From contig OY969559.1 of NCBI GenBank assembly GCA_963701075.1, positions 896,001 through 960,000 on the forward strand: 64,000 nt of DNA. Direction: 5' to 3'. Below, one piece after another: positions 18,648 to 48,299 of this stretch. The notes under the pieces were generated by a model. That model made no database searches, had not been told where the DNA came from, and saw only the letters and a program-made list of their open reading frames with translations. The number at the start of each line of letters is the position of its first letter. The first letter of the stretch is position 1. The translations under genes and the position numbers were made by a program. The DNA comes from an uncultured Nitrososphaerota archaeon (GTDB taxonomy: Archaea; Thermoproteota; Nitrososphaeria; Nitrososphaerales; Nitrosopumilaceae).

Positions 18648-18695
18648 ATAATAAAACAATTGTCAAACTATGTTAGTGAACATTGTTATTGACTT
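18648..18695 (-). promoter_or_regulatory. Shared-architecture promoter site A
   Basis: Minus strand: aagtcaatAACA a TGTTcactAACA t agtttgacaatt gTTTTATTATA, ending ~20 nt before the ATG at 18627. Confidence 0.7.
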
Positions 18696-18830
18696 AAAAC
18701 TGGCAGATTCTATCGTCTAGGTGAAAAATTGCAAAGGATGTATTGTACAAGTCTGACTTTTAATTCGTATCACATCTCATGATTTTAGCTTTCAAACGAT
18801 TAAATACAATAGGGAAAGATCAAAAATCAA

Positions 18831-19949
18831 TTGAGCCAACTAACTCAACAACTTCATCATTCTGAGATAGGTGATATTTTAGAAAATTCTGTTGCTGGAA
18901 AAAGACCTGGCTATGATGAATGTTTGAGACTTTTGGACTCTGATGATGTTCATCTAATGGGTCTTGTAGGTGGACACCTTACAAGAAAAAAATTTGGAAA
19001 AAAAGCCTCATTTGTAAACAATATGATTCTCAATTACACCAATGTGTGTATAACTGATTGCAAGTTTTGTGCGTTTTACAGGCCACCGGGACACGACGAG
19101 TCTTATACTGTGTCATTAGAACAGGTTGAATCAAGATTAAAGGCAGCATGGGATATGTTTGGCATTACACAGGTGATGTTTCAGGGCGGACATAATCCAA
19201 AGCTTAGAATCGAGTACTATGAAGACGCGTTTAGACTTATTCGCAAAAAATTTCCCAAAGTGGGAGTTCATGCCCTTTCAGCGTCTGAAATTGACATGAT
19301 ATCAAAGGTAGAACACACAAGCACCAAGGAGGTACTTGCAAGACTGAAAGAAGCGGGCCTTCAATCAGTACCTGGTGCCGGAGCAGAAATTCTAGTTGAT
19401 AGTGTAAAGCAAGTGATAAGCCCCAAGAAGATCTCAAGTGATACGTGGCTTAGAATAATGGAAGAAGCTCACAGCATGGATATTCCCGCATCTGCTACAA
19501 TGATGTATGGTCATGTTGAAACAAAAAAAGAAATTGCGGAACACTTTGTAAAGATTGGAAAACTCCAAGAAAAGACTGGTGGATTTATGGCATTTATTCC
19601 GTGGAGCTTTGAGCCAAACAATACACTCATGCAAAAAGAAGAGACGGTCAAGTATGCCGCAGGAGGAACCGAGCTACTAAAGATGATTGCCATATCAAGA
19701 ATAATGTATGATGGACTCATACCCCACATCCAGTCATCATGGCTCACAAACGGTATAGCTATGGCCCAGATGGCATTACAGTATGGTGCAGATGACTTTG
19801 GAGGAACACTGCTTGGAGAGGAAGTGGTATCATGTACCGGTGCAAGGTCTACAGAACTTACAGCGCCTAAAATCATTGATGCCGTAAAACAAATTGGATA
19901 TCAAGTGGAAGAACGCGATAACTTTTACAATATTGTAAAAACGTACTAA
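18831..19949 (+). CDS. mqnC: Radical SAM protein, cyclic dehypoxanthine futalosine synthase (MqnC/CofH family)
   Basis: NYTNVCITDCKFCAF, QGGHNP, PGAGAEIL, TMMYGH and GADDFGGT motifs; next to ubiD. Confidence 0.8.
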   Translation: MSQLTQQLHHSEIGDILENSVAGKRPGYDECLRLLDSDDVHLMGLVGGHLTRKKFGKKASFVNNMILNYTNVCITDCKFCAFYRPPGHDESYTVSLEQVESRLKAAWDMFGITQVMFQGGHNPKLRIEYYEDAFRLIRKKFPKVGVHALSASEIDMISKVEHTSTKEVLARLKEAGLQSVPGAGAEILVDSVKQVISPKKISSDTWLRIMEEAHSMDIPASATMMYGHVETKKEIAEHFVKIGKLQEKTGGFMAFIPWSFEPNNTLMQKEETVKYAAGGTELLKMIAISRIMYDGLIPHIQSSWLTNGIAMAQMALQYGADDFGGTLLGEEVVSCTGARSTELTAPKIIDAVKQIGYQVEERDNFYNIVKTY

Positions 19950-21433
19950 ATCCCATAACTGGACCACTTGGAATCAACGAGTTTCTTGGTATCTTCATCT
20001 GATTTTACAAGTTCCTGAATTTCTCTTTGGTATCCTTCTTCCTTTGTTTTCTGTGTAGCGTCAATTCCAAGTTTTGAGCCCAGATTGACCAGTGGTGATG
20101 CTGGGTCAAGAGTATCAGTAGGGGTGTTGTTAACTATGGTAACATCTCTTGCCGCATCTGCACGAGTTGTAACTGCCCATATTACATCATTCATGTCGTG
20201 TACGTTGACGTCCTCGTCGACTACGACAAAAATTTTTGTTAGTGCAAGCTGGCCCATTCCCCACAAGCCCATCATGACTTTTTTTGCCTGTCCTGGGTAT
20301 CGTTTCTTGATTGATATTATTGCCATCCCTTGGAACCATCCTGCAGCAGGCATTGAAAAATCAACTACCTCTGGATGAAACATTCTGATGAGTGGAAGAA
20401 ATGAGCGCTCTATTACTTTTCCAATGAAAGCATCTTCTAAGATTGGTTTTCCGACTATGGTAGTTAGGTAGATTGGTTTTTGTCTTCTCATAATTCCAGT
20501 TAATGTAAACACTGGATATGGTTCAGGCGGCGTGTAGTATCCAGTGTGATCACCAAATGGACCTTCCATTCTGATATCTGAAGGGTCCACATATCCCTCA
20601 AGTATCATCTCTGCATTTGCAGGTACTTCGAGATCAACTGTTCTACATTTTACAGTCTTGATTCCTGTCTTTCTTGTGATTCCTGCAAAGACATACTTGT
20701 CAAGTCCTTCTGGCACTGGTGCAACGGCAGAAAAAACTGTAGCAGGGTCTGCACCGATTATTACCGCTACCTCTATCTTGCTACCCGAATCTTTTTTGAT
20801 ATCATAATGATGTGCTCCACGTTTGTGCTTTTGCCAGTGCATGAGAGCATGAGTCTTGTCTAAAACCTGCATCCTGTATACCCCAAGATTTCTAACTCCT
20901 GTCTCGGGATGTTTTGTGGCAGCAAGACCAAACGTAATGAACCTTCCTGCATCCTTTGGCCATGTCTTCAAGATTGGAATTTTTTCAAATGACGGCAAGT
21001 CTTCAAACACTTCTGTTACAGGGCCACTCTTTTGTAATTTCGGTGCAATGTCCGTTATCTTTGAAAGCTCTGGAAGTTTTCGTAGTTTATCAAAAATTCC
21101 ACTTGGAACTTCCATGCGAGTCATATCAACAATCCTCTGACCAATTTCCGTGAAATCAGAACTCTCTAATCCAATTTCTAATCGCTTCATGGAACCAAAA
21201 GCATTTCCTAAAACTGGCATGTCATAATTTTTTACATTTTCAAAAAGGACTGCGGGACCATTTGAATACATGACGCGACTTAGAATTTCTGAAATCTCAA
21301 GATTGGCGTCAACCTGCGTCTTTACTCTTTTTAGCTCACCTGCTTTTTCGAGCTTGTCTACAAACTCGGAAAGCTCCTCAATTGGCACAACGTCTATTGA
21401 ATATGTATCTGGTATAAGCTTAACTGGATTCAT
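19946..21433 (-). CDS. ubiD: UbiD-family (menaquinone biosynthesis) decarboxylase
   Basis: NLGVYRMQ, EGPFGDHTGYY, VVDEDV, DTLDPAS and KLGIDAT motifs. Confidence 0.92.
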   Translation of the reverse strand: MNPVKLIPDTYSIDVVPIEELSEFVDKLEKAGELKRVKTQVDANLEISEILSRVMYSNGPAVLFENVKNYDMPVLGNAFGSMKRLEIGLESSDFTEIGQRIVDMTRMEVPSGIFDKLRKLPELSKITDIAPKLQKSGPVTEVFEDLPSFEKIPILKTWPKDAGRFITFGLAATKHPETGVRNLGVYRMQVLDKTHALMHWQKHKRGAHHYDIKKDSGSKIEVAVIIGADPATVFSAVAPVPEGLDKYVFAGITRKTGIKTVKCRTVDLEVPANAEMILEGYVDPSDIRMEGPFGDHTGYYTPPEPYPVFTLTGIMRRQKPIYLTTIVGKPILEDAFIGKVIERSFLPLIRMFHPEVVDFSMPAAGWFQGMAIISIKKRYPGQAKKVMMGLWGMGQLALTKIFVVVDEDVNVHDMNDVIWAVTTRADAARDVTIVNNTPTDTLDPASPLVNLGSKLGIDATQKTKEEGYQREIQELVKSDEDTKKLVDSKWSSYGI

Positions 21434-21496
21434 ACTGAGAAACAGGAAAGGGTTTTAACAAAAGAACTTTAATATCCTCTAAGGGAATGGCATAAG

Positions 21497-21727
21497 TTGT
21501 CCGGCCAAAAATGCTCCGTCTGTGGCGGCGGTGGGAAGATTGTTCTTTTAGATACTCAATGTTCTTTTTGCAACGGAACTGGGGAATATAGCAGAACTGC
21601 AGACAGTTACATGAAGTCGCATATTTGTCAATGCATCTTTTTGGACAGGATAACATGTCCACTTTGTGGAAAGAAATGTCATCACGACACTCCAAACAAA
21701 CCAAAAATTTTGATAGGTCCAGTCTAG
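21497..21727 (+). CDS. Small Cys/His-rich zinc-finger protein
   Basis: CSVCGGGG and CSFCNGTG (DnaJ-like CxxCxGxG), plus HICQC..CPLCGKKCHH. Confidence 0.75.
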   Translation: MSGQKCSVCGGGGKIVLLDTQCSFCNGTGEYSRTADSYMKSHICQCIFLDRITCPLCGKKCHHDTPNKPKILIGPV

Positions 21728-22101
21728 ATAATAGGTGGCAATTCGTTTTTCTTGTCGTGACCGCCAGATCCAAACCTGCAGTAAAAACATTGGTCTGATT
21801 GCATGTACTTTAGCTGTTCAACCTTTATCGCTCCAATTTTTAGCGCAATCTTGGTGAGGATCCTGTACTTGAGCGGCATTGCGGGAATCACCTCTTTTAG
21901 ATAAACGCGATAATGGTCAGGACAGAACTTTAACGTAATACTGCTTGATTCCTTGGAGGTCTCGCTTACCGTCTTGGCTACGTTGATCTGCTCCCTTATG
22001 TATTCATGCTTTGGGCAAGGGCAATCCTTTCCCCCTGGGTGCTTGTATGCAGGCGTGTTTTTCCAGTCAAATTCGGGATATTCCTTCTCAAAATCGTCCA
22101 A
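21724..22101 (-). CDS. Hypothetical Cys-containing protein
   Basis: 125-aa ORF with CPCPKH, FCPDH and CFYC. Confidence 0.7.
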   Translation of the reverse strand: MDDFEKEYPEFDWKNTPAYKHPGGKDCPCPKHEYIREQINVAKTVSETSKESSSITLKFCPDHYRVYLKEVIPAMPLKYRILTKIALKIGAIKVEQLKYMQSDQCFYCRFGSGGHDKKNELPPII

Positions 22102-22199
22102 TGGCTTAAAATCGGCCTTTAGTCATATAAAACTTCTATAAATACTAGAATTACACGTGATCAAAATCTAAATAAACTACTTTACCAGAAAGCAAATAC

Positions 22200-23781: not shown

Positions 23782-23871
23782 GGTATCAAAAATAACGAAT
23801 CCCTAATTATTTTTTGTCAAGTGATTTCGAATGTTTTATATGGTATGCGCCTTAGGTGAAATTTCAGTAAT

Positions 23872-24582: not shown

Positions 24583-24633
24583 TTTTTCTATTTATTTGAA
24601 ATGTATTATAACGGGTCAACTGAAAGTTTCTTT

Positions 24634-27996: not shown

Positions 27997-28057
27997 AATT
28001 AAGAATTTCCAACAAATCCTAAATTACGTATTACCAGTCTGAAAGTGAACTTTAAGA

Positions 28058-36932: not shown

Positions 36933-36964
36933 ACATTTAAAAGGGCGGCTGCCTATATGTATTC

Positions 36965-37690
36965 ATGATACAAACAATCAGGGCAAACGAACATCACAAA
37001 AGCGAGATGGATTGGCTCTCTACCTATTACCATTTCTCATTTGCAGATTACTTTGACCCAAAGAAAATGAATTATGGACCGCTTCGTGTCTTCAACGATG
37101 ACACCATACAACCAGGAGAAGGATTCGATCTACACCCACACAGGGATATGGAGATTGTAACATACGTAATTGACGGGGAACTAGAGCACGAAGACAGTCG
37201 CGGCAACCAGGGGGTAATCAAGCCAGGTGAGATTCAGGTAATGACTGCAGGATCTGGTATAATGCATGCAGAACGCAACCATTCAAAAGAAAAACCATTA
37301 CATCTTTTGCAAATGTGGGTTATTCCAGATAAAAAAGAACTAGCCCCATCATGGCAACAAAAGGGATACTCTAAAGAACAGAGACTGGACAAGCTGTTGC
37401 AAGTTGTTTCGCCGCTTGGTTTAAACTCAAATGGCGCACTAACCATGCATCAAAACGTGTCATTTTATGTCTCAAGTCTAACGCCAGGCGCTGAAATTTC
37501 GCATGAAATACAGCCCGGACGAAAGGCATACGTGTTTGTCATAGAGGGAAAAGTCCAGATCAATGGTACCACTATGCAAACAAAAGATGCCGCAAGAGTG
37601 GAAGATGAACGTAAATTAGCAATTAAATCAGAAAAACAAACCGAACTGATATTGATAGATCTGCCAGAAAAATACGCAGTAAAAACTTAG
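36965..37690 (+). CDS. Pirin family protein (YhhW-like)
   Basis: FSFADYFDP, LRVFNDD, HPHRDMEI, HEDS.GN and MTAGSGIMHAE motifs. Confidence 0.93.
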   Translation: MIQTIRANEHHKSEMDWLSTYYHFSFADYFDPKKMNYGPLRVFNDDTIQPGEGFDLHPHRDMEIVTYVIDGELEHEDSRGNQGVIKPGEIQVMTAGSGIMHAERNHSKEKPLHLLQMWVIPDKKELAPSWQQKGYSKEQRLDKLLQVVSPLGLNSNGALTMHQNVSFYVSSLTPGAEISHEIQPGRKAYVFVIEGKVQINGTTMQTKDAARVEDERKLAIKSEKQTELILIDLPEKYAVKT

Positions 37691-38028
37691 GTCTCTTTTT
37701 TTAATTTTGGCTTCCATTTATTTGCCCATTGGCCCAAATCCTCGAGTATTTCTTCTAGTTCCCTTGCTTGTTTTGTCAAGCTATATTCCACTCTAACTGG
37801 TATCTCTTGGTAAATTTTTTTAATCACAAGCCCATGACCCTCTAATTCTGATAGCCTATCTGATAGTACAGTACTGCTTATCCCAGAAACAAGTCTCTTT
37901 AATTCATTGAAACGAATGGTCTCATTCGTACTTAGATTTCTTAGAATTACCAAAGACCATGTCCTGCCAAGAACATGCCAAATGTCAGAAACATCGCACT
38001 GGACCATCTTTTTGCTCTTTGAATCCAA
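37687..38028 (-). CDS. HxlR/DUF24-family winged-helix regulator with an N-terminal Cys
   Basis: C....VLGRTWSLVIL..RFNEL..GISSTVLSDRL.ELE..P.RVEYSLT. Confidence 0.92.
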   Translation of the reverse strand: MDSKSKKMVQCDVSDIWHVLGRTWSLVILRNLSTNETIRFNELKRLVSGISSTVLSDRLSELEGHGLVIKKIYQEIPVRVEYSLTKQARELEEILEDLGQWANKWKPKLKKET

Positions 38029-38032
38029 CTGT

Positions 38033-38049
38033 GGTATGTTTTACATACC
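38033..38049. promoter_or_regulatory. Palindromic operator GGTATGTTTTACATACC in front of the HxlR gene
   Basis: GGTA-N9-TACC palindrome between the TATA-like TTTAAAA and the start codon. Confidence 0.6.
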
Positions 38050-38150
38050 TAGTTTTAAACACTTACCATGTCTTTTTTAAAAATCCATCTTCAATTTTGG
38101 ATTGATAGTGCTTCTGAAACGCAACACAAATTTAATTTTTCTAAATTAGT

Positions 38151-38198
38151 TCTTCACTAACAATGTTCATTCACAATGTTTCATAATTCTTTATATTG
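38151..38198 (+). promoter_or_regulatory. Shared-architecture promoter site B
   Basis: tcttcactAACA a TGTTcattcACA a tgtttcataatt cTTTATATtg. Confidence 0.65.
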
Positions 38199-38372
38199 TG
38201 TCTAATATATCGAGAGCAACGAATAACACTAAATCAAGTATATTTCAAAAATTGTTTGTAATAATATCTACGGTAGGTTCTATCATAGAAATATCTAATG
38301 ATGAATTTATACAGAGCGTCCAGTACGTGATTAACACTGAACATGGTAAAGATATGATTTCACGTGGTGTTT

Positions 38373-38930
38373 ATGGAAAATAGCAAGTGGGCAACAAGAT
38401 TCATCTGGAGTGCAGTGATCCAGGGAGGATTAGTTACAGCAGCTACGCTAATACTGTTTGTATATGGTTCTGTCTACTTCAAACCTACTCCTGCAACCGT
38501 AATTGCAGCGGGTAGTGCAGGCACATGGCTATTGATTGGATACATGGCATACATTGTCATGATAATAGCTCTTGGCGTAACAGCGCTTTTCTATGACTAT
38601 CTAGAAGTGAGGTTAGGCAGACCGATAACGGGAAAAAAGCGTAGTTTTCTCACCGTGATACATTTGTTGCTAATGAACGTAGGCATAACAGGCTCCACCT
38701 GGTTGCTCATGTATGTGGGATTCGTTGGCGGCGCGGCTATACTGCCTGTCTCTTCAGGTGGTAGAGGCTTGACAGATTTGCAAGCTCACGAGCAAATTCT
38801 TGCTCCATTTCCTCCTGTTATCATAGGATTCATTGTGGCGATCATGATCGGTGTCCTGTCAGGAGGGCTTGCCTACTTGCTGGAGCTAAAGTCCAAGACG
38901 AAATTCTCTGAAAATGATTCAATGAGATAG
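38373..38930 (+). CDS. Four-TM membrane protein
   Basis: Four hydrophobic helices; IHLLLMNVG and QAHE segments. Confidence 0.75.
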   Translation: MENSKWATRFIWSAVIQGGLVTAATLILFVYGSVYFKPTPATVIAAGSAGTWLLIGYMAYIVMIIALGVTALFYDYLEVRLGRPITGKKRSFLTVIHLLLMNVGITGSTWLLMYVGFVGGAAILPVSSGGRGLTDLQAHEQILAPFPPVIIGFIVAIMIGVLSGGLAYLLELKSKTKFSENDSMR

Positions 38931-38992
38931 ATATTCAAGATACAAAATTTTTTGATCTCAAAACCAGTACTGTATAACAGAAAGACAATGAA

Positions 38993-39313
38993 TCATTTCT
39001 TCTTTACTAAAAAGAAGCCTATGATAAATAGTGAAGCGCTGATGAGAAATGATGTTAGGTTGAGTACAAGAAAACCCAATCCTAGGGGTATGGGAACATA
39101 CAACGTTGGAATGCATAACCCATGAATGAAAGTATCGCAGGTAGGGAATCGCTTTGGAATTGTGGTTTCAAGCTCTGCTGATTGACGAGTTATGACGCCG
39201 ACAACATATGGGGATAGGAGCAGAACAAGACCTATGATGGCATTCCTGTCAAACTTTCCTGCCTTTCTTACCAAACTTGTAACCAAAAATTTCAATTTTT
39301 TAATCATTAACAT
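38993..39313 (-). CDS. Small membrane protein
   Basis: Two hydrophobic segments with a Cys pair in the loop. Confidence 0.55.
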   Translation of the reverse strand: MLMIKKLKFLVTSLVRKAGKFDRNAIIGLVLLLSPYVVGVITRQSAELETTIPKRFPTCDTFIHGLCIPTLYVPIPLGLGFLVLNLTSFLISASLFIIGFFLVKKK

Positions 39314-39428
39314 AACCCAGGGTTCTTTGCCTTTTTATTGATATGCTCATCTCCAAACACCTTAAATTCTTCATCTTTTTCTAGCGTTACAACAGTTTGC
39401 CTTGATATGCACCTTGTGAATTCTTCAA

Positions 39429-39719
39429 TCAAAAGTTATCGCTAAAGTTTCTTGTATGTTTGTCGACTTCATCCTGAGGGGATGAATGTCCGTCATTGTC
39501 CTTGTGCTCTGTCTTGTGGCTACGTCTTGCCATTTTTTCCTCGTGCTCCTTTCTAGAGTGATGAAGCCTGTCTGTCTCATGAATAAACTCCATTCCGCAT
39601 TCTGTACACTTGACTATGTCATGATGATGGTCGTGGCGAGCATGACTTATCAGATCCTCCTGCTTTGAAAATTCTGATTTGCATTGCTCACACTTGAACT
39701 TCTTTCCAAAAAACTTCAT
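39429..39719 (-). CDS. Double C2H2 zinc-finger, His-rich protein
   Basis: CEQC..F....L..HARHDH and CTECG..F......HHSRKEH. Confidence 0.8.
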   Translation of the reverse strand: MKFFGKKFKCEQCKSEFSKQEDLISHARHDHHHDIVKCTECGMEFIHETDRLHHSRKEHEEKMARRSHKTEHKDNDGHSSPQDEVDKHTRNFSDNF

Positions 39720-39806
39720 GTTAAATTAACGTCTCATGATGCCGTAAATAAGACTATTGTTGGGCTCTTCTGATGCCTAAAATGTAAAGACGGGAAAATA
39801 GAAAGT

Positions 39807-39854
39807 CCTAATTAAAAATTGTGATACACTGTTAAGCAACATTGTTACCGAAAG
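39807..39854 (-). promoter_or_regulatory. Shared-architecture promoter site C
   Basis: Minus strand: ctttcggtAACA a TGTTgcttAACA g tgtatcacaatt TTTAATTagg. Confidence 0.65.
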
Positions 39855-39939
39855 TATTTTAATTTGTATAAAATTCATTGGTATCCCAATCATTGGTACA
39901 CAAATTTTATATCCTATCATCTCCTAGATAAATCAAGAA

Positions 39940-40866
39940 ATGAACCCTGTCAAATCCACAAACGTGCTAAAACCGCTTGCAATGATGGCAAGCATCGTAA
40001 TATTGCTTACAGTAAGTTTAGCCCCTGCCTTTGCAGACAGCGCAAGCCCCCCACTTGCTCCTACAAACCTAAACGCCATGCCAGTATCTGGAAATCAAAT
40101 TGCCTTGACATGGAATTCTCCAATAAATGCTACTCAAAGCGGAGTCATAGGATATCAGATCCAACGAAATGGAACAATTCTTGTTAACAATACCGAAAGC
40201 GCATTAACAAACTATAATGATACTAGTCTACTTCCAGGTAATGTAGGACAATATCAGGTTGCAGCTTGGAATGCAGTTGGTCTTGGTTTGTTCTCAAATA
40301 ATGCCTCTGCAGCTACTGTTCTATATGCTAGCCCAACAACTCCAGGCCCAACACCCACAAACACAACTTCGACAATCATTGGGGGTAACTGGACAAAGTA
40401 TGTAGTAATACCACATCACAGTCAACACGGAATTCTAGACAACCAAACCTTGTCTCATTTTGACAGGGCGCATACTGGTCAATTCATGTATGGCAAAGAC
40501 AATGGGACATCTATCGAGCAGCAAAATGGCACCTTTTACCGAACTGACAAACCAAGTCCTACTGTGAGCGACTCTCAACATGAATGGAACAAACAGATGG
40601 AGCAGTTCAAGCCCAGTATAAAGCAAGATGAAAACCAATACAAAAACTTGCACACTGGTGCACAGATTTGGCCTAATGTCTCGACAGGTGCGGGTGGTCA
40701 TACCCAAGCGACAAAATCAACCTACAGGAATTTGCACTCAAACTGGATTCAATCTAAAAGCCTTGGAACAAATGGAGTCCCGTTTTCAGGACTGACTCAT
40801 GAAAATAAACTTGAGAACTGGCACAAAATACCGCCAACAGACTGGAAAAAAATACCACAAAACTGA
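39940..40866 (+). CDS. Secreted fibronectin type III domain protein
   Basis: Signal peptide (..APAFA); PLAPTNL..IALTW..GYQIQR..Y.V.A.N FN3 pattern; disordered tail. Confidence 0.8.
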   Translation: MNPVKSTNVLKPLAMMASIVILLTVSLAPAFADSASPPLAPTNLNAMPVSGNQIALTWNSPINATQSGVIGYQIQRNGTILVNNTESALTNYNDTSLLPGNVGQYQVAAWNAVGLGLFSNNASAATVLYASPTTPGPTPTNTTSTIIGGNWTKYVVIPHHSQHGILDNQTLSHFDRAHTGQFMYGKDNGTSIEQQNGTFYRTDKPSPTVSDSQHEWNKQMEQFKPSIKQDENQYKNLHTGAQIWPNVSTGAGGHTQATKSTYRNLHSNWIQSKSLGTNGVPFSGLTHENKLENWHKIPPTDWKKIPQN

Positions 40867-40947
40867 GTCAACAAAACACTAATTGGTCTGAAATTGCAAA
40901 GACAATAACATGCTACTATCTCAAATAAATCGGGTTGCATGTGAAAT

Positions 40948-42003
40948 ATGACAGACCTTTATCGTGTACTGCCAGAGGAGATGGACAAGCTTGTAACAAG
41001 CATAGGACAGCCACGTTATCGTGCAGACCAACTGCTGCACATGATGTACCATGAATTCCCAAAAGACATGTCTGATATGCGTCAAATTCCATCAGAGATG
41101 AGAAAAGCACTATCTTCTGCAGGGTATACAATTGGATCTGCAAATGAAATTCATCGCGTAGTAAGCGAGGATGGACAGACAACAAAACTTCTTCTAAAAC
41201 TCGGTGATGGAACTCTAATTGAGACAGTACTAATGCAGTACCGCAAGGGAAACAGTCATCCAAGATCAACTATCTGTGTATCGACACAGGTTGGCTGCCA
41301 GATGGGCTGCACGTTCTGTGCTACAGGGCAGATGGGCTTTGAGAGGAATCTCAAGGCAGAAGAGATCGTTGCACAGGTATTGCATTTTGCTTCAGTCCTC
41401 CAAGAGCGGGAAGAACACGTCACAAACATCGTCTTCATGGGGATGGGAGAGCCTCTGGCAAATTATGCAGAAACCATTCGAGCAGTCAGACTATTGACAC
41501 ACGCACGCGCATTTGGTCTTGGACAGAGACACATCACCATTTCCACAGTTGGTGTAATGAAAGGAATAGACAGTCTTGCAGAGGAAGACTTGCAGATAGG
41601 GCTTGCAATCTCACTTCATGCCCCAAATGACGAACTGCGAAGAAAATTAGTACCAACTGCAGGACCCCATTCGGTCAAAGATTTGATCACGGCTACAAGA
41701 ACTTATTTCAAAAAGACAGGCAGACGTGTTACGCTAGAATACGCCCTGATAGACGGAGTCAACGATTCGCCAGAAATTGCAACAGAGCTTGCCGCATTAT
41801 TGAAAGGTAACGGGGCTCACGTGAATCTAATACCGGTGAATCCAACCGCTGGCGGTTTCAAACGTCCACGATGGAAACGCATAACAGAATTTGAACATGT
41901 ACTGCGAGAGTCTGATGTGAATTGTACCGTAAGAGTAGAGAAGGGATCTGAGATATCAGCTGCGTGCGGTCAGCTAAGAACTGATGTTGCAAAGAATCTC
42001 TAG
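40948..42003 (+). CDS. rlmN: 23S rRNA/tRNA m2A methyltransferase RlmN (radical SAM)
   Basis: CVSTQVGCQMGCTFC, FMGMGEPL, ISLHAP and C-terminal AACGQL. Confidence 0.9.
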   Translation: MTDLYRVLPEEMDKLVTSIGQPRYRADQLLHMMYHEFPKDMSDMRQIPSEMRKALSSAGYTIGSANEIHRVVSEDGQTTKLLLKLGDGTLIETVLMQYRKGNSHPRSTICVSTQVGCQMGCTFCATGQMGFERNLKAEEIVAQVLHFASVLQEREEHVTNIVFMGMGEPLANYAETIRAVRLLTHARAFGLGQRHITISTVGVMKGIDSLAEEDLQIGLAISLHAPNDELRRKLVPTAGPHSVKDLITATRTYFKKTGRRVTLEYALIDGVNDSPEIATELAALLKGNGAHVNLIPVNPTAGGFKRPRWKRITEFEHVLRESDVNCTVRVEKGSEISAACGQLRTDVAKNL

Positions 42004-42117
42004 ATTGCCATATGCTTTCAAGACACAAAGACTAGACGATGTAACTGCGCTTTGATTTGTCAAAATTGGTACAAATGACATCAATGGGAATTTATTCTCC
42101 TGCATCCAAAACTATCC

Positions 42118-42393
42118 ATGAACAAAGATAGAGGCGTCTGCAAGGGTCTTTGTAAACCCTACAAGGTTAGAAAACCAAGAGACGGGACCAGCCGCTATTT
42201 GTCGGATCAAGTACGATGCCAGATTTGCGGGATTTTCATGACACGGGAGGGATGCCATGACATTGAAGACAAGCCCGCAACCAACGAGACTGTAGGTCTA
42301 TACTGCAACTGCTGTAACTGCATGGTAAGATCAAAACCAAGAAACAAACCTGGCACAAAAGACCATGAAAAAGATTCAGGTTTTGTACGATGA
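42118..42393 (+). CDS. Cys-rich zinc-binding hypothetical protein
   Basis: CKGLC..RY....RCQIC..CNCC..R.KPR. Confidence 0.7.
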   Translation: MNKDRGVCKGLCKPYKVRKPRDGTSRYLSDQVRCQICGIFMTREGCHDIEDKPATNETVGLYCNCCNCMVRSKPRNKPGTKDHEKDSGFVR

Positions 42394-42540
42394 CCAACTA
42401 TTACTATTGTTTGGGGTGTAAGAAAATCATAGTAAGTAAAGACCGTGATTATGGTCCAAGATGTCCAGCTTGTAAAAAACAAGCTAAACAAAGCACAAGT
42501 TAAGGCTGTACTTTACTTAAAATCTCATATTTCACGACTT

Positions 42541-42972
42541 CTATTCTTTCTGTAAAGTTTTTGATTCTTGAAGATTCCAGCAGTTTTTGCAGAGATAGCC
42601 TGTAACACACCATTCTTTTTTTGGACGATGTACAAAAAAACCAAGTTTGGCGTTGCACAGACTGCAATTCTTCTTCAATTCATTGTCTGATTTTTCCCTT
42701 TCATTAAAACAAGATTCACAAAGCCATCCTTTTAGTTCCCATTCTTTTTTTGGCCTCCATAGATTGTATGTTCCAGGCTCTGCCCCGCACAAAACACATT
42801 TGTTGTCATTGGCCTTTTTTTTATCAAAATTTTCTTTCATTAGATCCACATAACAATTTGCACACAGTGGACCTTTGACATTCCAGTCCTTCTTTGGATT
42901 GCTTTTGCGAGAGATGCCCTTTTTACAAACAGTACAAAATTCCTTTTTTTTATTGCTACTGAATAATCCCAC
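42541..42972 (-). CDS. Protein with three tandem zinc-finger repeats
   Basis: 3x CxxC..PKK(D/E)W...G.LCxxC. Confidence 0.75.
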   Translation of the reverse strand: MGLFSSNKKKEFCTVCKKGISRKSNPKKDWNVKGPLCANCYVDLMKENFDKKKANDNKCVLCGAEPGTYNLWRPKKEWELKGWLCESCFNEREKSDNELKKNCSLCNAKLGFFVHRPKKEWCVTGYLCKNCWNLQESKTLQKE

Positions 42973-43029
42973 GGTATTGCACTGATTCCATCTTAAAAAA
43001 AGTTCCCGGTTTTGCGGTATTTTTCCAAT

Positions 43030-43641
43030 ATGGCATCACCGGAATACCTAAAAACAAAGGGACAAGGAAAGAACATCTTGACCATTACAAACCAAAGTAT
43101 CCAAGATCATCCCTGCATATCGTGTCATACAAACTGCTGTAAAGAATATACAATATTTGTTAACGCTCATGATGTTTACAGAATTTCGGTTGGACTTGGG
43201 CTAGATCCAGAGAATTTTCTAGAGATTTATGGCGCAAAGGAAGATGCATGGGGTATACAGATTGAAGAGGGCTTGGTGGATCTTGCCTTGAAGCAAAAGG
43301 ATGACACGTGCACATTTCTGATAAAATTTGAAGACAATTTTCGTTGTGGAATACACGATCTCAAACCTGGTGTATGTAAGTCTTATCCATTTCAACTAAA
43401 AGATGGAAAATTAATCCAGATGGATGATAAACTGTGCCCTGTCGACTGGGATGTAGCAAAAGAATTCGAAACCATGATGACCACTCATCTCAAAAAAGAT
43501 GAAAACGAATGGAAATTCTATTATGATCTTATTTTAGAATGGAATGCCACCAACCCTCATAATCTCCAATTATCCAAATTTCTAAGATTTCTAATTGAAA
43601 GAGTGGCATTATCTATAAATGAAAATTCCAAGAAAAAATAG
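43030..43641 (+). CDS. YkgJ-family cysteine-cluster protein (CxxCxxCC)
   Basis: CISCHTNCC, CTFL..CGIH..KP.VC.SYPF motifs. Confidence 0.82.
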   Translation: MASPEYLKTKGQGKNILTITNQSIQDHPCISCHTNCCKEYTIFVNAHDVYRISVGLGLDPENFLEIYGAKEDAWGIQIEEGLVDLALKQKDDTCTFLIKFEDNFRCGIHDLKPGVCKSYPFQLKDGKLIQMDDKLCPVDWDVAKEFETMMTTHLKKDENEWKFYYDLILEWNATNPHNLQLSKFLRFLIERVALSINENSKKK

Positions 43642-43672
43642 GCTATCTGTTCAAACTGTATCTGAAGAATAA

Positions 43673-44632
43673 TTACTGTTGTTTTGTACCGTCATCTTTT
43701 GGTTTTTCTTTTTGGACTGCTCTTTTAGTGCTCTCAAGATATGCTATGGTAGTTCCCAAGTTTCCAAATCCTATGGAATTGAGCGATTCTGAAGGAACCA
43801 TGACTATGGTAGTGCCTTGTACTTTTATTGACTCGTACAACATATTGGACTGTCTTAATGCAAAGGCAACGGGGTTTTCTGCATATACCTGTGCAGCTTC
43901 TTCAAATTTCTTTGCAACTAGAATTTCTGATTCGCCATATATGACACGTGCATTCTTCTCACGCTCTGCCTGAGCCTGCATTGACATTGCAGATTCTAGT
44001 TCTTGAGGTATGATGACTTGACGAATCTCGACGCCTGTTACTTCGACGCCCCAGTTGCTTGCCTCGCTTTCTATTACTGCCTTGATGCGAGAATTGATAT
44101 CTTCCCTTTTTGAGAGTATGTCCTGGAATACTGAAAAACCTATGTTATTACGAAGTGTAGTCTGAGAAACTTGCTGTATCATTTGGTTAAAGTTTTCTAC
44201 ATTTAGTATTGCATCCTTGGCTCGCTGCTCAATTATTCTATAGCGAAGAATCGCGTCAATGGTTACTGGAACATTGTCCTTTGTAAGCATCCTTTCTGCC
44301 TTGAATTCGCTTACTTTTTCCCTAATATCCACTACGAGAATATTGTCTGCAAAAGGCAATCTTGTCTGTACTCCCGGTCCTACCTGCCTATTGTATTTTC
44401 CAAGACGGAGTATTACCGCTCTTTCATATTGTTTGATTATCATTAGAAACGATGAAGCAATAACTGAGACTCCAATGACCATTGCAAGATATGTTATTAC
44501 ATCATTATGATAGAAAAGACCAATCCCAATACCTATGATTAGAATCAATACTCCTATTATGGCATAAGTGCCAGATCCTTTCTGATTTACTAGCTTGTGT
44601 GCAAAATCGTATGGCATATATCCGCTAGACAA
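43673..44632 (-). CDS. SPFH/band-7 (stomatin-like) protein
   Basis: QYERAVILRLG, LTKDNVPV, TTLR..IG, WGVEV and QAQAERE motifs. Confidence 0.92.
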   Translation of the reverse strand: MSSGYMPYDFAHKLVNQKGSGTYAIIGVLILIIGIGIGLFYHNDVITYLAMVIGVSVIASSFLMIIKQYERAVILRLGKYNRQVGPGVQTRLPFADNILVVDIREKVSEFKAERMLTKDNVPVTIDAILRYRIIEQRAKDAILNVENFNQMIQQVSQTTLRNNIGFSVFQDILSKREDINSRIKAVIESEASNWGVEVTGVEIRQVIIPQELESAMSMQAQAEREKNARVIYGESEILVAKKFEEAAQVYAENPVAFALRQSNMLYESIKVQGTTIVMVPSESLNSIGFGNLGTTIAYLESTKRAVQKEKPKDDGTKQQ

Positions 44633-44687
44633 ATCTCTTTTACCTGATAATTGTAGACATTCCGTCTGATTTAAAGTCCATCTATCT

Positions 44688-44879
44688 TTAGTGTTTTGTC
44701 AGATTAGAATTGGCAGCACCTTGCAATGCATTTTTTATGATTGGGTCTGTCGCGTTTTGAACACTATCTCGAATCTGTACTAGTTTGTCAAAAACGGTGC
44801 CAACCTGTGTATAGTTGAAATATGCAACTAAAAAAACCACGACTGCGCATATTATCACTATTTTGACAATCATTCCCAT
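44688..44879 (-). CDS. Small membrane-anchored hypothetical protein
   Basis: N-terminal TM helix; 63 aa. Confidence 0.55.
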   Translation of the reverse strand: MGMIVKIVIICAVVVFLVAYFNYTQVGTVFDKLVQIRDSVQNATDPIIKNALQGAANSNLTKH

Positions 44880-45061
44880 GGTATCACTCCATTGATTGTT
44901 CTTTTTACTTGTGTGGTAAGAAGGATTAAAGTCCTATGTTAAAATTTTAAATGATATTTTCTGCAGTCAACTGAAACTAGCTCATTTTTAGGTAATTGTA
45001 ACGTCTTTCATTATTTTAATGTGGAAATTAGTGTAAAGTCTTTATTGTTTGTTGTACTATA

Positions 45062-45289
45062 TTGAACCAATTGAAGAGTCTAGGCAAGATCTTTGTTATC
45101 ACAGGTTCAGTCCTTAGTGTAGCTAGTGCACTTGGCTTTCTGCATGTGCTCGTACCACGACATCAGCCATACTTCCAGGGTGCCTATTTCATGCTTGGAA
45201 TACTTATGATCATAGTGGGGACGTATGTGTGGACAAGTACGCACAAGTCAGACGCATTTTGGAACTATGTCAAGCACAATAAAGTCTAA
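45062..45289 (+). CDS. Small two-TM protein
   Basis: Two hydrophobic helices; TATA-like element upstream. Confidence 0.6.
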   Translation: MNQLKSLGKIFVITGSVLSVASALGFLHVLVPRHQPYFQGAYFMLGILMIIVGTYVWTSTHKSDAFWNYVKHNKV

Positions 45290-45341
45290 AACTTCAATGA
45301 TGCTTTTTTAAAACTTGTGGTACAAACCAAAAACAAATTTG

Positions 45342-45389
45342 TTCTGACTTACAATATTAGTGAACAAGGTTCATCATTTCATAAATACT
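45342..45389 (+). promoter_or_regulatory. Shared-architecture promoter site D (upstream of the regulator pair)
   Basis: ttctgacttACA a TaTTagtgAACA a ggttcatcattt cATAAATAct; ATG at 45410. Confidence 0.6.
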
Positions 45390-45409
45390 CTAAACTGGAA
45401 ACTAGTTAC

Positions 45410-45964
45410 ATGATGAAATCGGTCAATGGCTCAAAAAAGACATCGACCATTACATTCAGACTTGACGATGACACAATACACAGACTCCGTGATCTATCCA
45501 AGGTGCAAGAAGTAAGCACAAACACTCTGGTAAATCAAGCATTGAAGAGATTCATTGACTGGGACTTTTATCTTCCAAGATCTGGGTTTGTGATTCTAAG
45601 CAAGCCAGTATTGAAGAAACTATTCGATGGGATGGATGCAAAGTCTGTAGTTGAGATTGCCTCTACGATCGGAAAGGAAGGGATTGAAGACATTGTCTTG
45701 TTTATGCGTGGAAAGGTAGAATTGACTTCATTTATAGCATGGTATGAAATCCTGATGATAAATTCATCAGTACAGATAAGCCATCTTGTTGACAACGGGT
45801 TTCATAACATGGTCCTAAAACATGACTTGGGAAAGAATTGGTCATTATATCAAAAGACCATTCTTGAGCTTATTTTCAAAGAATTGTTCAAAAAGAAGAT
45901 AGAACTAGAGTGCGACAAAAACACCGTAAGGGTAATGTTTACAGATGATGGAATCTCAAGCTGA
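45410..45964 (+). CDS. Putative ribbon-helix-helix regulator with a C-terminal effector-like domain (paralog 1)
   Basis: TITFRLDDD....L.......STNTLVNQAL (RHH pattern) and C-terminal HDLGKNWS. Confidence 0.75.
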   Translation: MMKSVNGSKKTSTITFRLDDDTIHRLRDLSKVQEVSTNTLVNQALKRFIDWDFYLPRSGFVILSKPVLKKLFDGMDAKSVVEIASTIGKEGIEDIVLFMRGKVELTSFIAWYEILMINSSVQISHLVDNGFHNMVLKHDLGKNWSLYQKTILELIFKELFKKKIELECDKNTVRVMFTDDGISS

Positions 45965-46514
45965 GTCTCAGCAATACAGTGAACCAACCGGAACAGTGAC
46001 CTTTAGGATAGATGCACAGATATTAACAAAACTAAAAAAACATGCCATCTACGAGAAATCCACCGTTAACGGATTGGTAAATAAATTGCTTCTGCAAGCA
46101 GTGGAATGGGATATTGTAGCAGCCAAATCAAAATGGATTCCAACCGAAAGAGAACTCATCAAATCAATTTTGGATAAACTAGACGATAAAATGATTATGC
46201 AAGTGGCGCAGGCAGAAGGAAAAAGTATCCCGCGTGACCTGTGTCTCTCAATGCGGGGAAATTATAGTGTGAATGACTGGATTGATATCATAAAGATGAG
46301 ATCAGTCGTGGCTGGCTTTGATCTTACCGAGATAAATGCCGGAAAAATGATGATATTTGTAATGCGTCATGATCTGGGCAAAAAATACTCTCTGCACTGT
46401 AAGGCATTTTATGAACAAGCCTTTGAGTCACTTGAATGCCCTGCAACATTTGAGATATCTGAAAATACTCTAGTATTCAAGATACCAAAGAATAGTCTTC
46501 TTGCAGAGCAATAG
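45945..46514 (+). CDS. Putative ribbon-helix-helix regulator (paralog 2), overlapping the upstream gene
   Basis: TVTFRIDAQ....L.......TVNGLVNKLL and C-terminal HDLGKKYS; clear paralogy with the previous ORF. Confidence 0.75.
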   Translation: MMESQAESQQYSEPTGTVTFRIDAQILTKLKKHAIYEKSTVNGLVNKLLLQAVEWDIVAAKSKWIPTERELIKSILDKLDDKMIMQVAQAEGKSIPRDLCLSMRGNYSVNDWIDIIKMRSVVAGFDLTEINAGKMMIFVMRHDLGKKYSLHCKAFYEQAFESLECPATFEISENTLVFKIPKNSLLAEQ

Positions 46515-46599
46515 CTCCTTCTAACCTCATTTCATCTGTTCTGCCCGCATGTTATGATATGCAAGTGCCAAAGGACAGCGCCTCAAGTGATGAATACAT

Positions 46600-46672
46600 G
46601 GAAACTGTAGGGCTAGGAGAGTCTGGGGAAGGGCACATTTCCCAATAAAATTACATGGCACCTACAGTTTCC
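46600..46672 (-). ncRNA. Candidate hairpin small RNA driven by promoter site E
   Basis: Perfect 12-bp IR GGAAACTGTAGG (46600-46611) / CCTACAGTTTCC (46661-46672) with an inner GGG(G)AA/TTCCC stem; begins ~20-28 nt downstream of the site-E TATA. Confidence 0.45.
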
Positions 46673-46690
46673 AAACAAAAGTAAGTCCAA

Positions 46691-46739
46691 AATTAAATAA
46701 TACTTGTGTACTTTTGTTCATGAACAATGTTTTCTATCC
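46691..46739 (-). promoter_or_regulatory. Shared-architecture promoter site E
   Basis: Minus strand: ggatagaaAACA t TGTTcatgAACA a aagtacacaagt aTTATTTAAtt. Confidence 0.65.
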
Positions 46740-46907
46740 CGATCTGATATTTCATAAATTATACAAAACCTAAAACCATCAAATTGTTATCTTGACAAAA
46801 TGATGAGCGTCATCCTGTTCTGTTTTATCTTGTTAGAAAGAATTTTAGAGTAGAACGTCTTTTTATAGAACATTTTTGAAACGAGATCTGTAAACTAACA
46901 GATTATC

Positions 46908-46955
46908 TTTTCACTAACAATGTTCGTTAACAAAGTGTCACAACTGTTTATTAAT
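46908..46955 (+). promoter_or_regulatory. Shared-architecture promoter site F
   Basis: ttttcactAACA a TGTTcgttAACA a agtgtcacaact gTTTATTAAt; ATG at 46987. Confidence 0.7.
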
Positions 46956-46986
46956 TTCATGCTGTGTTTTGTTTATAATTAATGGC

Positions 46987-47541
46987 ATGAACACAGAAAA
47001 CCAAAAACTGTTTACAATAATGGTAGGAATTGTGTTATTTTCTATCTTAGGTCTGTCTACTGTGTATGCACAGACAGCACCAACGGGTGGTATGGGCGGT
47101 ATGGGTATGTCAGGGTCTGGTTATAGTGGTCAATATGGAAACTCGACATCTCATGGATCGCATAGCGGCTCTTTCTCACATTCGGGTAACTTTACAAGAA
47201 ATGCTGGTGCATATAACATGACTGCACACTCAGGAAATTTCTCCCAAAATGGAGCTGCGTATAACATGACTGGACATAGTAAATATCAAAATATGCCGCC
47301 AGGTACTAATGCTTCTACAGTTCCATCTGGCATTCCTGTGACACCTGTGACTAGTGCTCCTACTGCCAATACTGTGCAGAATGCGCTGCCACCCTTGCAA
47401 CAATTCAGATCAGGCACGCCTGCAAATAAAATATCATGCGAAGAGGGCTTTCAACTAATAATAAAAGCTGAGGATGGTTCTCCAGCATGTGTTAGTTCTG
47501 GAACTTACTCGTTGCTAGTAGAACGTGGCTGGGGCCATTAG
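46987..47541 (+). CDS. Secreted Gly/Met/His-rich protein with a Cys-pair C-terminal domain
   Basis: Signal peptide (..VYAQ), GGMGGMGMSG, HSG repeats, and a PPLQQFRSG..ISC..LIIKAEDGSPACV..LVERGWG tail seen in many thaumarchaeal exported proteins. Confidence 0.8.
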   Translation: MNTENQKLFTIMVGIVLFSILGLSTVYAQTAPTGGMGGMGMSGSGYSGQYGNSTSHGSHSGSFSHSGNFTRNAGAYNMTAHSGNFSQNGAAYNMTGHSKYQNMPPGTNASTVPSGIPVTPVTSAPTANTVQNALPPLQQFRSGTPANKISCEEGFQLIIKAEDGSPACVSSGTYSLLVERGWGH

Positions 47542-47736
47542 ACTAATTGAACAGTTTGTACTTTTAATCTCAGCCACTTGATCTTCAAAAAGATCTATGA
47601 AAAAATAAACAAGAAAACTTGGAATCTACCAACTTGTATTCATATCATATTTTGGATTTGATATACTAAACAAAGTATTCAATACATCAAGTGTAACAAA
47701 TAAAATAAAAATAAAATAAGAAATGCTTCCTAGATT

Positions 47737-48228
47737 TTACTCTTGGAAGTCAGTTGGGGCAACAGTTGTTGTACTATTGCTTGGTTTCTTCCACATTCCC
47801 ATGTGTCCGTGCATCTTTCCATGTCCACCCATGCCGCCTCCGATAAGAGAAGCCAGCGTTAATGGATGTCCTTGTGATGTCTTGAGCACTGCGCCGTTTC
47901 CTGCATCTACTATGACAGAGTAGACGCTCTTGCCGTCTGTTACCTTAAAGGCATAGACAACAGAACCGTGTATGTCTCTGAGACCTCCTGATAGCACTTG
48001 TCCTCCAGTTACCTGACCTGCAGCAGTTGTTGCAGCAGTTGTAAATGAAGTCTTCACACTAGATAGTATCATCTGTGGAAGGTTGATTGAACCCTGTATT
48101 GGTGTTTGACCTGAACCAGTGCTTGTACTCTGTGCATATGCAAGTGAGCCACCTATTGAGGCAATCACTACAACGCCCACAATCATAGCAAGCAGTTTCT
48201 GATGGGTCTTTAGTTCTTGTATGTTCAT
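47737..48228 (-). CDS. Secreted PepSY-domain protein with a Met/His-rich tail
   Basis: Signal peptide (..AYAQ); VY.F.V......VIVDAGNGAVL PepSY pattern; GGGMGGHGKMHGHMGMW. Confidence 0.8.
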   Translation of the reverse strand: MNIQELKTHQKLLAMIVGVVVIASIGGSLAYAQSTSTGSGQTPIQGSINLPQMILSSVKTSFTTAATTAAGQVTGGQVLSGGLRDIHGSVVYAFKVTDGKSVYSVIVDAGNGAVLKTSQGHPLTLASLIGGGMGGHGKMHGHMGMWKKPSNSTTTVAPTDFQE

Positions 48229-48250
48229 TATACCATACCATTGGTCATGC

Positions 48251-48299
48251 AATTTATAATGGGTTGCGATACCTTGTTCGTTAACAAGGTTAGTGATCC
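48251..48299 (-). promoter_or_regulatory. Shared-architecture promoter site G
   Basis: Minus strand: ggatcactAACc t TGTTaacgAACA a ggtatcgcaacc caTTATAAATt; ATG at 48228. Confidence 0.7.

Follow-up and report, generated by a model that had tools for sequence, protein, structure and literature searches.

In Methanocaldococcus jannaschii, the Lrp-type activator Ptr2 acts at the rb2 and fdxA promoters through two symmetric sites placed just upstream of the TFB-recognition element (BRE) and the TATA box, with the proximal site being key. Here we describe a comparable arrangement in the genus Nitrosotalea, found in a 64,000-nucleotide stretch (the window, G000:C1:896001-960000) of a source genome (G000) that consists of a single contig of 1,915,938 bp. 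Seven promoters of the window, A to G, share a double palindrome directly upstream of a TATA-like element, and the protein that reads it is probably a 101-amino-acid member of the HTH_45 family. As with the Ptr2 sites, two adjacent elements of two-fold symmetry stand at a defined distance upstream of BRE/TATA, and the proximal one (box 2) appears to be key, as suggested by single-box promoters that keep it. The two systems differ in that HTH_45 is a winged-helix family as opposed to Lrp/AsnC, in the sequence recognized, and in the good TATA boxes found here. Moreover, activation by Ptr2 has been shown biochemically, whereas in the present case we infer it.

To our knowledge, very few transcription-factor regulons have been defined in ammonia-oxidizing archaea. 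By its predicted fold, its expected dimeric state and its ~20-bp palindromic operator, the candidate resembles MarR/PadR regulators such as SarZ, AbfR, ZitR and LmrR; unlike MarR, its sequence lies under the family thresholds, it is much shorter at 101 amino acids, and the centres of its two boxes are 13 bp apart, each box being itself palindromic. A weak winged-helix profile match (E 3.4e-7) also relates it to Sso10a, the chromatin proteins of Sulfolobus. Archaeal origin, small size and a C-terminal helix are common to the two, but the helix predicted for HTH_45 is short (residues 73-89) in comparison with the long coiled-coil rod of Sso10a, and HTH_45 appears to be tied to one particular operator, whereas Sso10a binds DNA generally.

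Two published regulons are also comparable. For RbkR, the accessible part of the report (PMC5397151) describes a regulator gene of the riboflavin regulon that is linked to a conserved palindromic site ahead of co-localized target genes across lineages, Thaumarchaeota included, although RbkR has a known ligand and pathway, unlike the HTH_45 regulon. Likewise, going by the available portion of the paper (PMC7785015), the copper motifs of N. viennensis are promoter motifs that lie 35-70 nt before the starts of exported proteins and proteins of unknown function, and are kept in soil relatives. Those motifs are tied to measured expression changes, while the present one is known from sequence, can be followed over a much broader range of genomes and has a regulator candidate in synteny with it. 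Regulons made up of a factor and its operator are familiar; the one described here is new and well delimited, and comes with an uncharacterized regulator family. The original prediction had called the motif undescribed, and no published description was found in the literature searched: neither the motif (as the string AACAATGTT) nor a function of HTH_45 is accounted for there. A query for PF14947 returned 0 papers, and PMC11561398 holds nothing relevant on PepSY, MacB, S-layer or regulators.

The shared operator and its promoter geometry

All seven window strings quoted in the original prediction were found, at the positions and on the strands given for them. The core pattern AACANTGTTNNNNAACA stands well above background, with four exact matches against 0.02 expected from 100 shuffles; when up to one mismatch is allowed, there are 12 matches against 0.96 expected. 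Sites A, C, E and F match the pattern exactly, B and G with one mismatch and D with two. For the genome-wide scan that had been proposed as a check, matrices were built from the seven sites. A first scan recovered strong sites outside the training set, among them 130674, 435092, 1609849 and 1621846 (all on the minus strand) at 40-50 bits, and a matrix of 32 nt gave 16 matches of at least 20 bits, compared with 0, 0 and 0 in three first-order Markov genomes. With the matrix after one refinement round, 19 sites of at least 20 bits and one of 16.4 bits are present in the whole genome, while the window contains no eighth site of at least 20 bits.

The sites are not spread equally into coding sequence: ~77% of the source genome falls within long open frames, and all 20 sites lie outside real coding sequence. 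D, G, the duplicate of G and the site at 177383 fall within stop-to-stop frames upstream of the true start codon, as F mostly does, and every one of the 20 is oriented such that the TATA-like element comes after it. Five further matches score lower (11-16 bits); they are located within coding frames, have no TATA behind them and are background. The seven promoters thus share a genuine cis-element, as had been claimed, but the regulon does not end with them, as there are ~20 two-box sites genome-wide plus ~6 single-box candidates. Nor are the seven fully independent, since G belongs to a duplicated PepSY unit of 637 bp (96.7% identity, inverted; window 47702-48335 versus genome 1611033-1611666) that comprises gene, operator and promoter.

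The consensus of 157 distinct sites of at least 26 bits, taken from the source genome and all fetched loci, reads ttCAnTAACAWTGTTCntKAACAAnGTttSRCAATTnTTTWWT. The core is as first quoted, but the motif is longer and more symmetric than described, with a second AACAWnGTT box. Box 1 (positions 3-11) is the 9-bp palindrome AACAWTGTT, and box 2 (positions 16-24) reads AACAAnGTt and lies 13 bp from box 1, centre to centre. Because the two boxes jointly form a 22-bp palindrome, many sites score on the opposite strand too. A third element, C28 A29 A30, occupies the BRE position; it takes the form CGCAA/CAATT and reads CGCAA across families. Generic promoters of the source genome show no more than a weak enrichment of A at this position.

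The geometry is rigid. In all sites the boxes occupy positions 3-24 and the TATA begins at position 34/35. Beyond the end of the matrix, T is found in 98% of the 157 sites at position 35 and in 93% at position 36; hence the spacing to TATA is invariant, in agreement with the fixed distance originally proposed. As expected of an archaeal upstream site, the operator is upstream of and adjoins BRE/TATA, and overlaps neither the TATA nor the start. The first ATG mostly lies 52-67 nt from the site start, i.e. ~28-31 nt after the TATA. Genome-wide, TTTWWW peaks sharply 28-31 nt before the ATG of long open reading frames, and leaderless transcripts therefore appear to be common in this organism. Given that the archaeal TATA box lies ~26 nt before the transcript start, the TATA-to-ATG distance suggests that most mRNAs of the regulon are leaderless, starting at the predicted sites; at B and C the leader is longer, and no credible open reading frame follows E. 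Most sites are found within divergent intergenic regions. We regard it as probable that a single transcription factor, HTH_45, reads the shared sequence as its operator, which is rigidly spaced from BRE/TATA.

Single boxes are also informative. AACAWTGTT occurs 50 times in the genome, of which 12 occurrences are known sites, 24 are coding and 14 are other non-coding ones. A TATA-like element is present at the box-2 offset in 6 of these 14 (background 10%), versus none of the 24 coding boxes. Three of the 6 stand before paralogues of a ribbon-helix-helix (RHH)-like family, one of which is disrupted; two others stand before genes of secreted proteins, and the sixth before an unclear gene. This pattern suggests that the proximal box, box 2, can stand alone.

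With up to one mismatch, the pattern is found in all 18 same-genus genomes of the comparison set (225 matches, the reversed control giving 65). Two of the genomes counted, G011 and G012, are unpublished, and if they are set aside 16 of 16 have the pattern; in G007, G008 and G014 the excess over the reversed control is small. Twelve other genomes of the same draw yield 11 matches versus 13 for the reversed control.

The HTH_45 protein as candidate reader

The HTH_45 gene (genome 1609971-1610276) lies ~670 kb from the window and encodes 101 amino acids, with a TTG start and the conserved N-terminus MSHEYRDR. It is the sole DNA-binding gene of a conserved cluster. In G014, G002 and G004, mem182 and HTH_45 run one way, while site-PepSY, site-DUF6659 and site-ABC (ATP-binding cassette) operon run the other way; the G005 contig begins inside the cluster, with the promoters of DUF6659 and of the ABC operon visible. 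The protein matches Pfam HTH_45 (PF14947) at 30.2 bits against a cut-off of 25.5 (E 4.4e-7, residues 36-112), the match being made on the 132-amino-acid open frame L006:4878-5276. It falls below the cut-offs for Pfam MarR (19.4 versus 24.6 bits) and for the Sso10a family NF053610 of NCBIfam (30.2 versus 60 bits), and a PDB sequence search returned nothing significant (phmmer E 0.06 or worse). Its AlphaFold2 model, with a predicted local distance difference test score (pLDDT) of 84.2, is a helix, a winged helix-turn-helix and a helix. Foldseek relates this model best to MarR/PadR-type dimeric regulators, with SarZ, AbfR, MarR, LmrR and ZitR among the matches listed (E 2e-4 to 3e-3, query-normalized template-modelling scores of 0.53-0.72 for those listed), and the modelled fold is MarR/PadR-like.

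Site and gene travel together. Orthologues of at least 76% identity are present in 17 of the 18 genus genomes, the exception being G003. A divergent site of 32-42 bits stands at all 17 ortholog loci with upstream DNA, one further locus beginning at the gene, and nine lower-identity paralogue loci (L079-L087) have no site. Among the best 80 public HTH_45 loci, 52 of the 55 Nitrosotalea-type loci with upstream DNA, which include those of Ca. N. devanaterra and N. bavarica, carry a site of at least 26 bits at -150 to -90; in Ca. Nitrosotalea devanaterra, three sites lie beside the gene (locus L126). Nitrososphaera/Nitrosopolaris-type loci have the order HTH_45, mem182, site, secreted protein. A site of at least 15 bits past mem182 is found in 9 of these 19 loci, with 0 other matches in 96 kb, some of the sites being made up of three boxes that are 13 bp apart. 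When 150 genomes were drawn from the whole order, 18 of the best 30 HTH_45 loci had a site within 1 kb of the gene, and these belong to five families of the order (f1, f4, f9, f12 and f15). The linked target is the PepSY-Met/His protein in f9 and Nitrosotalea, a ~180-amino-acid acidic secreted protein in f4, f12 and f15, and the ABC operon in G122 (genus g21). Promoter enrichment, conservation upstream of orthologues and co-occurrence with the factor gene, by which a regulon is recognized, are all observed. By synteny and phyletic pattern, then, the HTH_45 protein is the probable reader of the operator.

Right after the HTH_45 gene there is always mem182, which encodes a conserved membrane protein with two transmembrane segments. 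The conserved parts of mem182 are its cytoplasmic N- and C-terminal helices, and its extracellular loop is nearly absent in f4, f12 and f15. That the pairing with HTH_45 is kept even without the loop suggests, as a conjecture, that the two are a functional couple. A complex prediction with two HTH_45 chains and mem182 gave a score of 0.00, without controls, and no conclusion was drawn from it.

One other regulator candidate was considered and dropped. In L019 (G004), L023 (G009) and L028 (G015, where the gene looks frameshifted), the leaderless promoter of a 95-amino-acid winged-helix gene itself contains a strong site, but the homologues of this gene in the source genome (1692626-1692910 and 331045-331329) have none. 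Separately, a 37.5-bit site in L015 (G005:C13) precedes a 144-amino-acid protein that we take, by eye, to be universal stress protein-like; none of its many tblastn matches in the source genome has an operator of at least 11 bits.

Targets in the window and beyond

Species comparison shows a small conserved core that recruited many lineage-specific genes. Judged from the genomes compared, this core, which is situated ~670 kb outside the window, comprises the Met/His-tailed PepSY protein, DUF6659, the two-transmembrane protein and the operon of a MacB-type ABC transporter. Its site-bearing genes in the source genome include a second PepSY gene (1611140-1611631), an operon of an ABC ATPase, a 704-amino-acid surface protein and a MacB/FtsX permease (1605491-1609664), and a DUF6659 gene (1621378-1621746). 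Both the PepSY protein behind site G and that at 1611140 match PepSY (PF03413) at 24.0 bits, exactly the cut-off of 24, and PepSY orthologues across species are 46-56% identical. The core PepSY tail, FGMGxGxMxHGHMGG, is conserved in 4 of 4 Nitrosotalea orthologues read (three species) and in one f9 genome. The permease (L006 491-955 and 982-1725; genome 1605491-1606725) is here made up of two open reading frames, a MacB_PCD part of 247 amino acids and an FtsX part of 154, versus a single frame of 412-414 amino acids in relatives; it may be a broken gene or an assembly error.

Elsewhere outside the window, sites precede a 250-amino-acid Gly/Met/His/Asn-rich secreted protein, surface proteins of 1250 and 691 amino acids with MG2 and Big_3_5 domains, and a number of peptides and small proteins with a zinc ribbon. 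At the genes of an APS kinase (166812-167402, L002) and of a 430-amino-acid sulfotransferase (177383-178744, L003), the operator is a variant whose two boxes read AACAAAGTT, which hints that sulfation, perhaps of envelope glycans, is under the same control. Many low-complexity targets are full of N-x-S/T sequons, and the theme of the regulon is the secretome and the cell envelope.

Within the window, the downstream products had been named in broadly the right way: a His-rich secreted protein (A), a four-transmembrane protein (B), a His-rich zinc-ribbon protein (C), an RHH-like pair (D), a Gly/Met/His-rich protein (F) and a PepSY protein (G). Site A (18658..18689, minus strand; 39.4 bits) consists of the two boxes and GACAATT, followed by the TATA TTTTATTATAA, with the ATG 63 nt from the site start. 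Its target (18337..18627, minus strand) has 96 amino acids, a signal peptide and a His-rich stretch, and belongs to no Pfam family. Site B (38157..38188, plus strand; 38.8 bits; TATA CTTTATATT) has no start codon at leaderless distance. The presumed target (38373..38930, plus strand), a four-transmembrane protein of 185 amino acids with no Pfam family, begins ~150 nt past the predicted transcript start; G000 and G006 are the only genus genomes in which it was found. Divergent from B lies an HxlR regulator gene (37687-38028, minus strand; Pfam E 1.2e-24), whose start is ~129 bp from the site, comparable to the distance between HTH_45 and its site; a presumably pirin-like gene, which shares window 36965-38028 with the HxlR gene, is also divergent from B.

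Site C (39817..39848, minus strand; 36.0 bits; TATA TTTTAATTAG) has its ATG 129 nt from the start of the 32-nt site and 133 nt from that of the 40-nt segment read around it, implying a leader of ~65 nt. The target (39429..39719, minus strand; 96 amino acids) scores just under the cut-off of DUF7479; its orthologues occur in 17 of the 18 genus genomes, with the site only in G000 and the near-identical G006. A 308-amino-acid secreted fibronectin-III protein (window 39940-40866) is divergent from C and starts 92 bp from the site. Site D (45348..45379, plus strand) is the weakest at 26.5 bits; it reads TTACAATATT, then AACAAGGTT, followed by the TATA CATAAATA, with the ATG 63 nt from the site start. 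Its targets (45410..46514, plus strand) are two tandem paralogues of 184 and 189 amino acids, which have an RHH-like N-terminus and an alpha/beta C-terminal domain, but neither a Pfam nor an NCBIfam match, nor anything significant in a PDB sequence search. In the AlphaFold2 model, helices 20-33 and 37-52 come after a conserved TxTFRxD stretch, an RHH fold being no more than suggested by this secondary structure. With this model, Foldseek returned no natural-fold match above a template-modelling score of 0.4, giving only designed proteins and weak H-NOX-like matches. Orthologues of the D genes occur in 3 of the 18 genus genomes (G006, G013 and G001), and all three keep the site.

Site E (46702..46733, minus strand; 28.8 bits; TATA ATTATTTAAT) is divergent from F, and a transcript starting there, if made, would overlap the 3' end of the second RHH-like gene in antisense orientation. 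The region downstream (46500..46672, minus strand) contains a 12-bp perfect inverted repeat, but a structured RNA, such as the hairpin RNA proposed there, found no support, with a folding z of -0.65 versus shuffles and no Rfam match; an Rfam scan of window 37000-49500 at E of 1 or lower gave two chance-level matches, none of them at E or B. Site F (46914..46945, plus strand; 43.5 bits; TATA GTTTATTAAT) is near-consensus. Its target (46987..47541, plus strand) is secreted, has 184 amino acids and many N-x-S/T sequons, and ends in a C-terminal WING-49 (NCBIfam). Site G (48262..48293, minus strand; 32.7 bits; TATA CATTATAAAT) lies in the 637-bp duplicate of the core PepSY unit; the target (47737..48228, minus strand) is a secreted PepSY protein of 163 amino acids with a GGMGGHGKMHGHMGMW tail and a paralogue of that encoded at genome 1611140-1611631. 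Given that the window members are poorly conserved as targets, the window represents the recently expanded periphery of an older regulon, with most of its sites, by this comparison, being recent, lineage-specific recruits.

Mode of action and alternative explanations

In the reading that we favour, an HTH_45 dimer, or two dimers, would bind boxes 1 and 2 and contact TBP/TFB, leading to activation. This would drive secreted Gly/Met/His- and His-rich proteins, large surface proteins, APS kinase, sulfotransferase, zinc-ribbon and RHH-like proteins, in a programme that would remodel the cell envelope and for which a soft metal may be the cue. The regulon of this lineage would have expanded to ~20 promoters, the seven of the window being mostly recent recruits.

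Several observations weigh against this reading. G003 (78% complete) has sites but no HTH_45 match, and G023 has a 28-bit palindrome but neither the HTH_45 nor the RHH-like family. In G023, which belongs to another family, that one double palindrome (L057; G023:C7 ~62282-62323) sits between two unrelated genes. No site is found near the gene in 3 of 55 Nitrosotalea-type and 12 of 30 order-wide loci, some of which may be paralogues or have a diverged motif. The putative TATA of HTH_45 itself lies ~35-45 bp from the site, unlike the target geometry, and autoregulation is hence not evident. Furthermore, the two boxes are 9-bp palindromes in their own right, and 6 more promoters have one box alone, at the box-2 position; this fits a protein whose dimer reads one short palindrome, such as an RHH protein, better than a MarR-type dimer. 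As for the metal, no canonical metal-homeostasis gene lies behind a site, and Met in the low-complexity targets is largely within N-M-T glycosylation sequons. As for activation, the TATA boxes of the core promoters are good, while promoters that depend on an activator are in many cases weak; since MarR/PadR proteins, too, act mainly as repressors, repression has to be taken seriously as an alternative.

In that alternative, the operator and HTH_45 are the same, but the protein is a repressor that blocks TFB/TBP assembly until a ligand, or a signal from its two-transmembrane partner, releases it. We consider this possible. The MarR/PadR-like fold speaks for it, as such families consist mostly of ligand-released repressors, and so do the near-consensus TATA and A-rich BRE positions as compared with generic promoters, and the overlap of the conserved third element with the BRE position. 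Nevertheless, the ~20 genomic sites and the 157 sites overall are all at one distance, in no case with overlap of the TATA or the start; a steric repressor can act from various positions, and upstream sites in archaea usually mark activation. From this invariant upstream position, activation would have a slight edge over repression.

It is more doubtful that the regulon is a copper-response programme, as the Met/His tracts and the copper dependence of ammonia oxidizers had led the original prediction to propose. Tails rich in Met, His and Gly are of a kind found in Cu(I)/Cu(II)-binding periplasmic proteins, and the core PepSY tail is one of these; in Nitrosotalea, mem182 likewise has an extracellular loop rich in Met and His. 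Given this loop and the conservation of the tail, a soft-metal cue is conceivable. On the other hand, none of the genes seen behind a site codes for CopA, CopC/D, a multicopper oxidase or plastocyanin, and in f4, f12 and f15, where the mem182 loop is nearly absent, the linked acidic target of ~180 amino acids has no Met/His tracts. In the part of the work available (Reyes et al. 2020, PMC7785015), the motifs of N. viennensis under copper limitation are TTCSGSMTTTGWACYANT and RATTTAAABATAGATTTAAATAATAAS, and the operator consensus differs from both. TGTACCA, which fits the motif reported for copper limitation, forms a dense cluster at 1.54-1.566 Mb of the source genome, apart from the present sites.

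The activator reading can be extended to a bolder and rather speculative proposal, to which we give little weight, namely that HTH_45 and its two-transmembrane partner are an unrecognized two-protein signalling module of terrestrial ammonia-oxidizing archaea, controlling the envelope/secretome programme. Here mem182 would sense an extracytoplasmic cue, in Nitrosotalea via its Met/His-rich loop and aided by the secreted PepSY-Met/His protein, and would control the availability of the winged-helix activator. The latter would then dock on the geometry-locked double palindrome and recruit the basal machinery to leaderless promoters.

It is unlikely that the boxes are read instead by the RHH-like family of 184-amino-acid proteins, one dimer per palindrome, with HTH_45 as a mere neighbour or target. 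A 9-bp palindrome does suit an RHH dimer, as in MetJ/Arc/CopG-type proteins, and the family has 14 matches in the source genome, of which six (at 800-874 kb) precede the window by no more than ~100 kb; its members include 800482-801048, 801858-802355, 829860-830393, 849273-849800 and 873991-874518. An AACAWTGTT-like box is present in the promoters of D, 829866, 849276 and 1800233, at box-2 distance in three of them and one nucleotide further at 849276. Besides the site retained by the D orthologues of G006, G013 and G001, it also counts in favour of this idea that the family is expanded in exactly the soil lineages with many sites and is present in Nitrososphaera-type genomes. However, five genomes that are 94-98% complete (G070, G106, G060, G098 and G047) have HTH_45 and a 30-34-bit site but no RHH-profile match, and G029, with the same combination, has only a marginal match of 46 residues, although the same profile detects the family in G017, G018, G021 and G031-G035. 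Conversely, G024 has four family members, no HTH_45 and 0 pattern matches. With six site genomes devoid of a full-length member, and with G024, the RHH-like family cannot be the general reader, and it was rejected as such. In addition, true D orthologues are in 3 of 18 genus genomes versus 18 of 18 for the motif, subfamily promoters elsewhere (L043, L045, L046, L214-L219) lack a box at that position, and the N-terminus has no Pfam or PDB fold match. As the RHH-like pair is a target in this lineage, a regulatory cascade is suggested.

Two further features of this family were noted. The paralogue at genome 1800233-1800810, with a single-box promoter, has a seemingly disrupted N-terminal DNA-binding part (a stop after TFRFE). 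Promoters of RHH-like paralogues also hold TGGTACA/TGTACAAA words (window 45318-45324, genome ~830460, L047-L050), the TGGTACA at D lying 30 nt upstream of the site. These words resemble TGTACCA, and the paralogue 1565614-1566168 is inside the TGTACCA island; the family may thus link the present regulon and the TGTACCA regulon.

An extended promoter for an alternative basal factor, one among the several TFB/TBP paralogues that these archaea have, with no gene-specific regulator, is very improbable. CGCAA/CAATT is exactly at the BRE position, is conserved across families and is missing from generic promoters, but the conserved part reaches 34 nt upstream of the TATA as a two-fold symmetric double palindrome, an arrangement that suits dimeric regulators but not the contacts that TFB makes with the BRE, and the linkage to the HTH_45 gene would be left unexplained. 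Finally, chance likeness, or the duplication of a single promoter cassette that means nothing for regulation, can be dismissed: G was indeed duplicated from the other locus along with its gene, and the D promoter is homologous to promoters of D-gene paralogues, but this explanation is already contradicted by the enrichment (four exact matches against 0.02 expected), by the geometry (boxes and TATA conserved while spacer positions vary among the 157 sites, with unrelated flanks and downstream genes) and by the identical architecture in other families of the order.

The outcome is a precisely defined operator, ~20 target promoters and a specific 101-amino-acid candidate regulator. Ammonia-oxidizing archaea drive nitrification in soils and oceans, and are not yet genetically manipulable; given that the operator, the targets and the candidate are also present in cultured strains, the question can be tested without genetics. 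With targets that are mostly secreted, sequon-rich and Met/His-rich, together with an ABC exporter, the regulon may report envelope remodelling or metal handling in an acid-soil nitrifier. If HTH_45 and mem182 do act as one signalling module, it would be an archaeal functional analogue of trans-envelope signalling of the anti-sigma/ECF (extracytoplasmic function) type, present in at least five families of the order.

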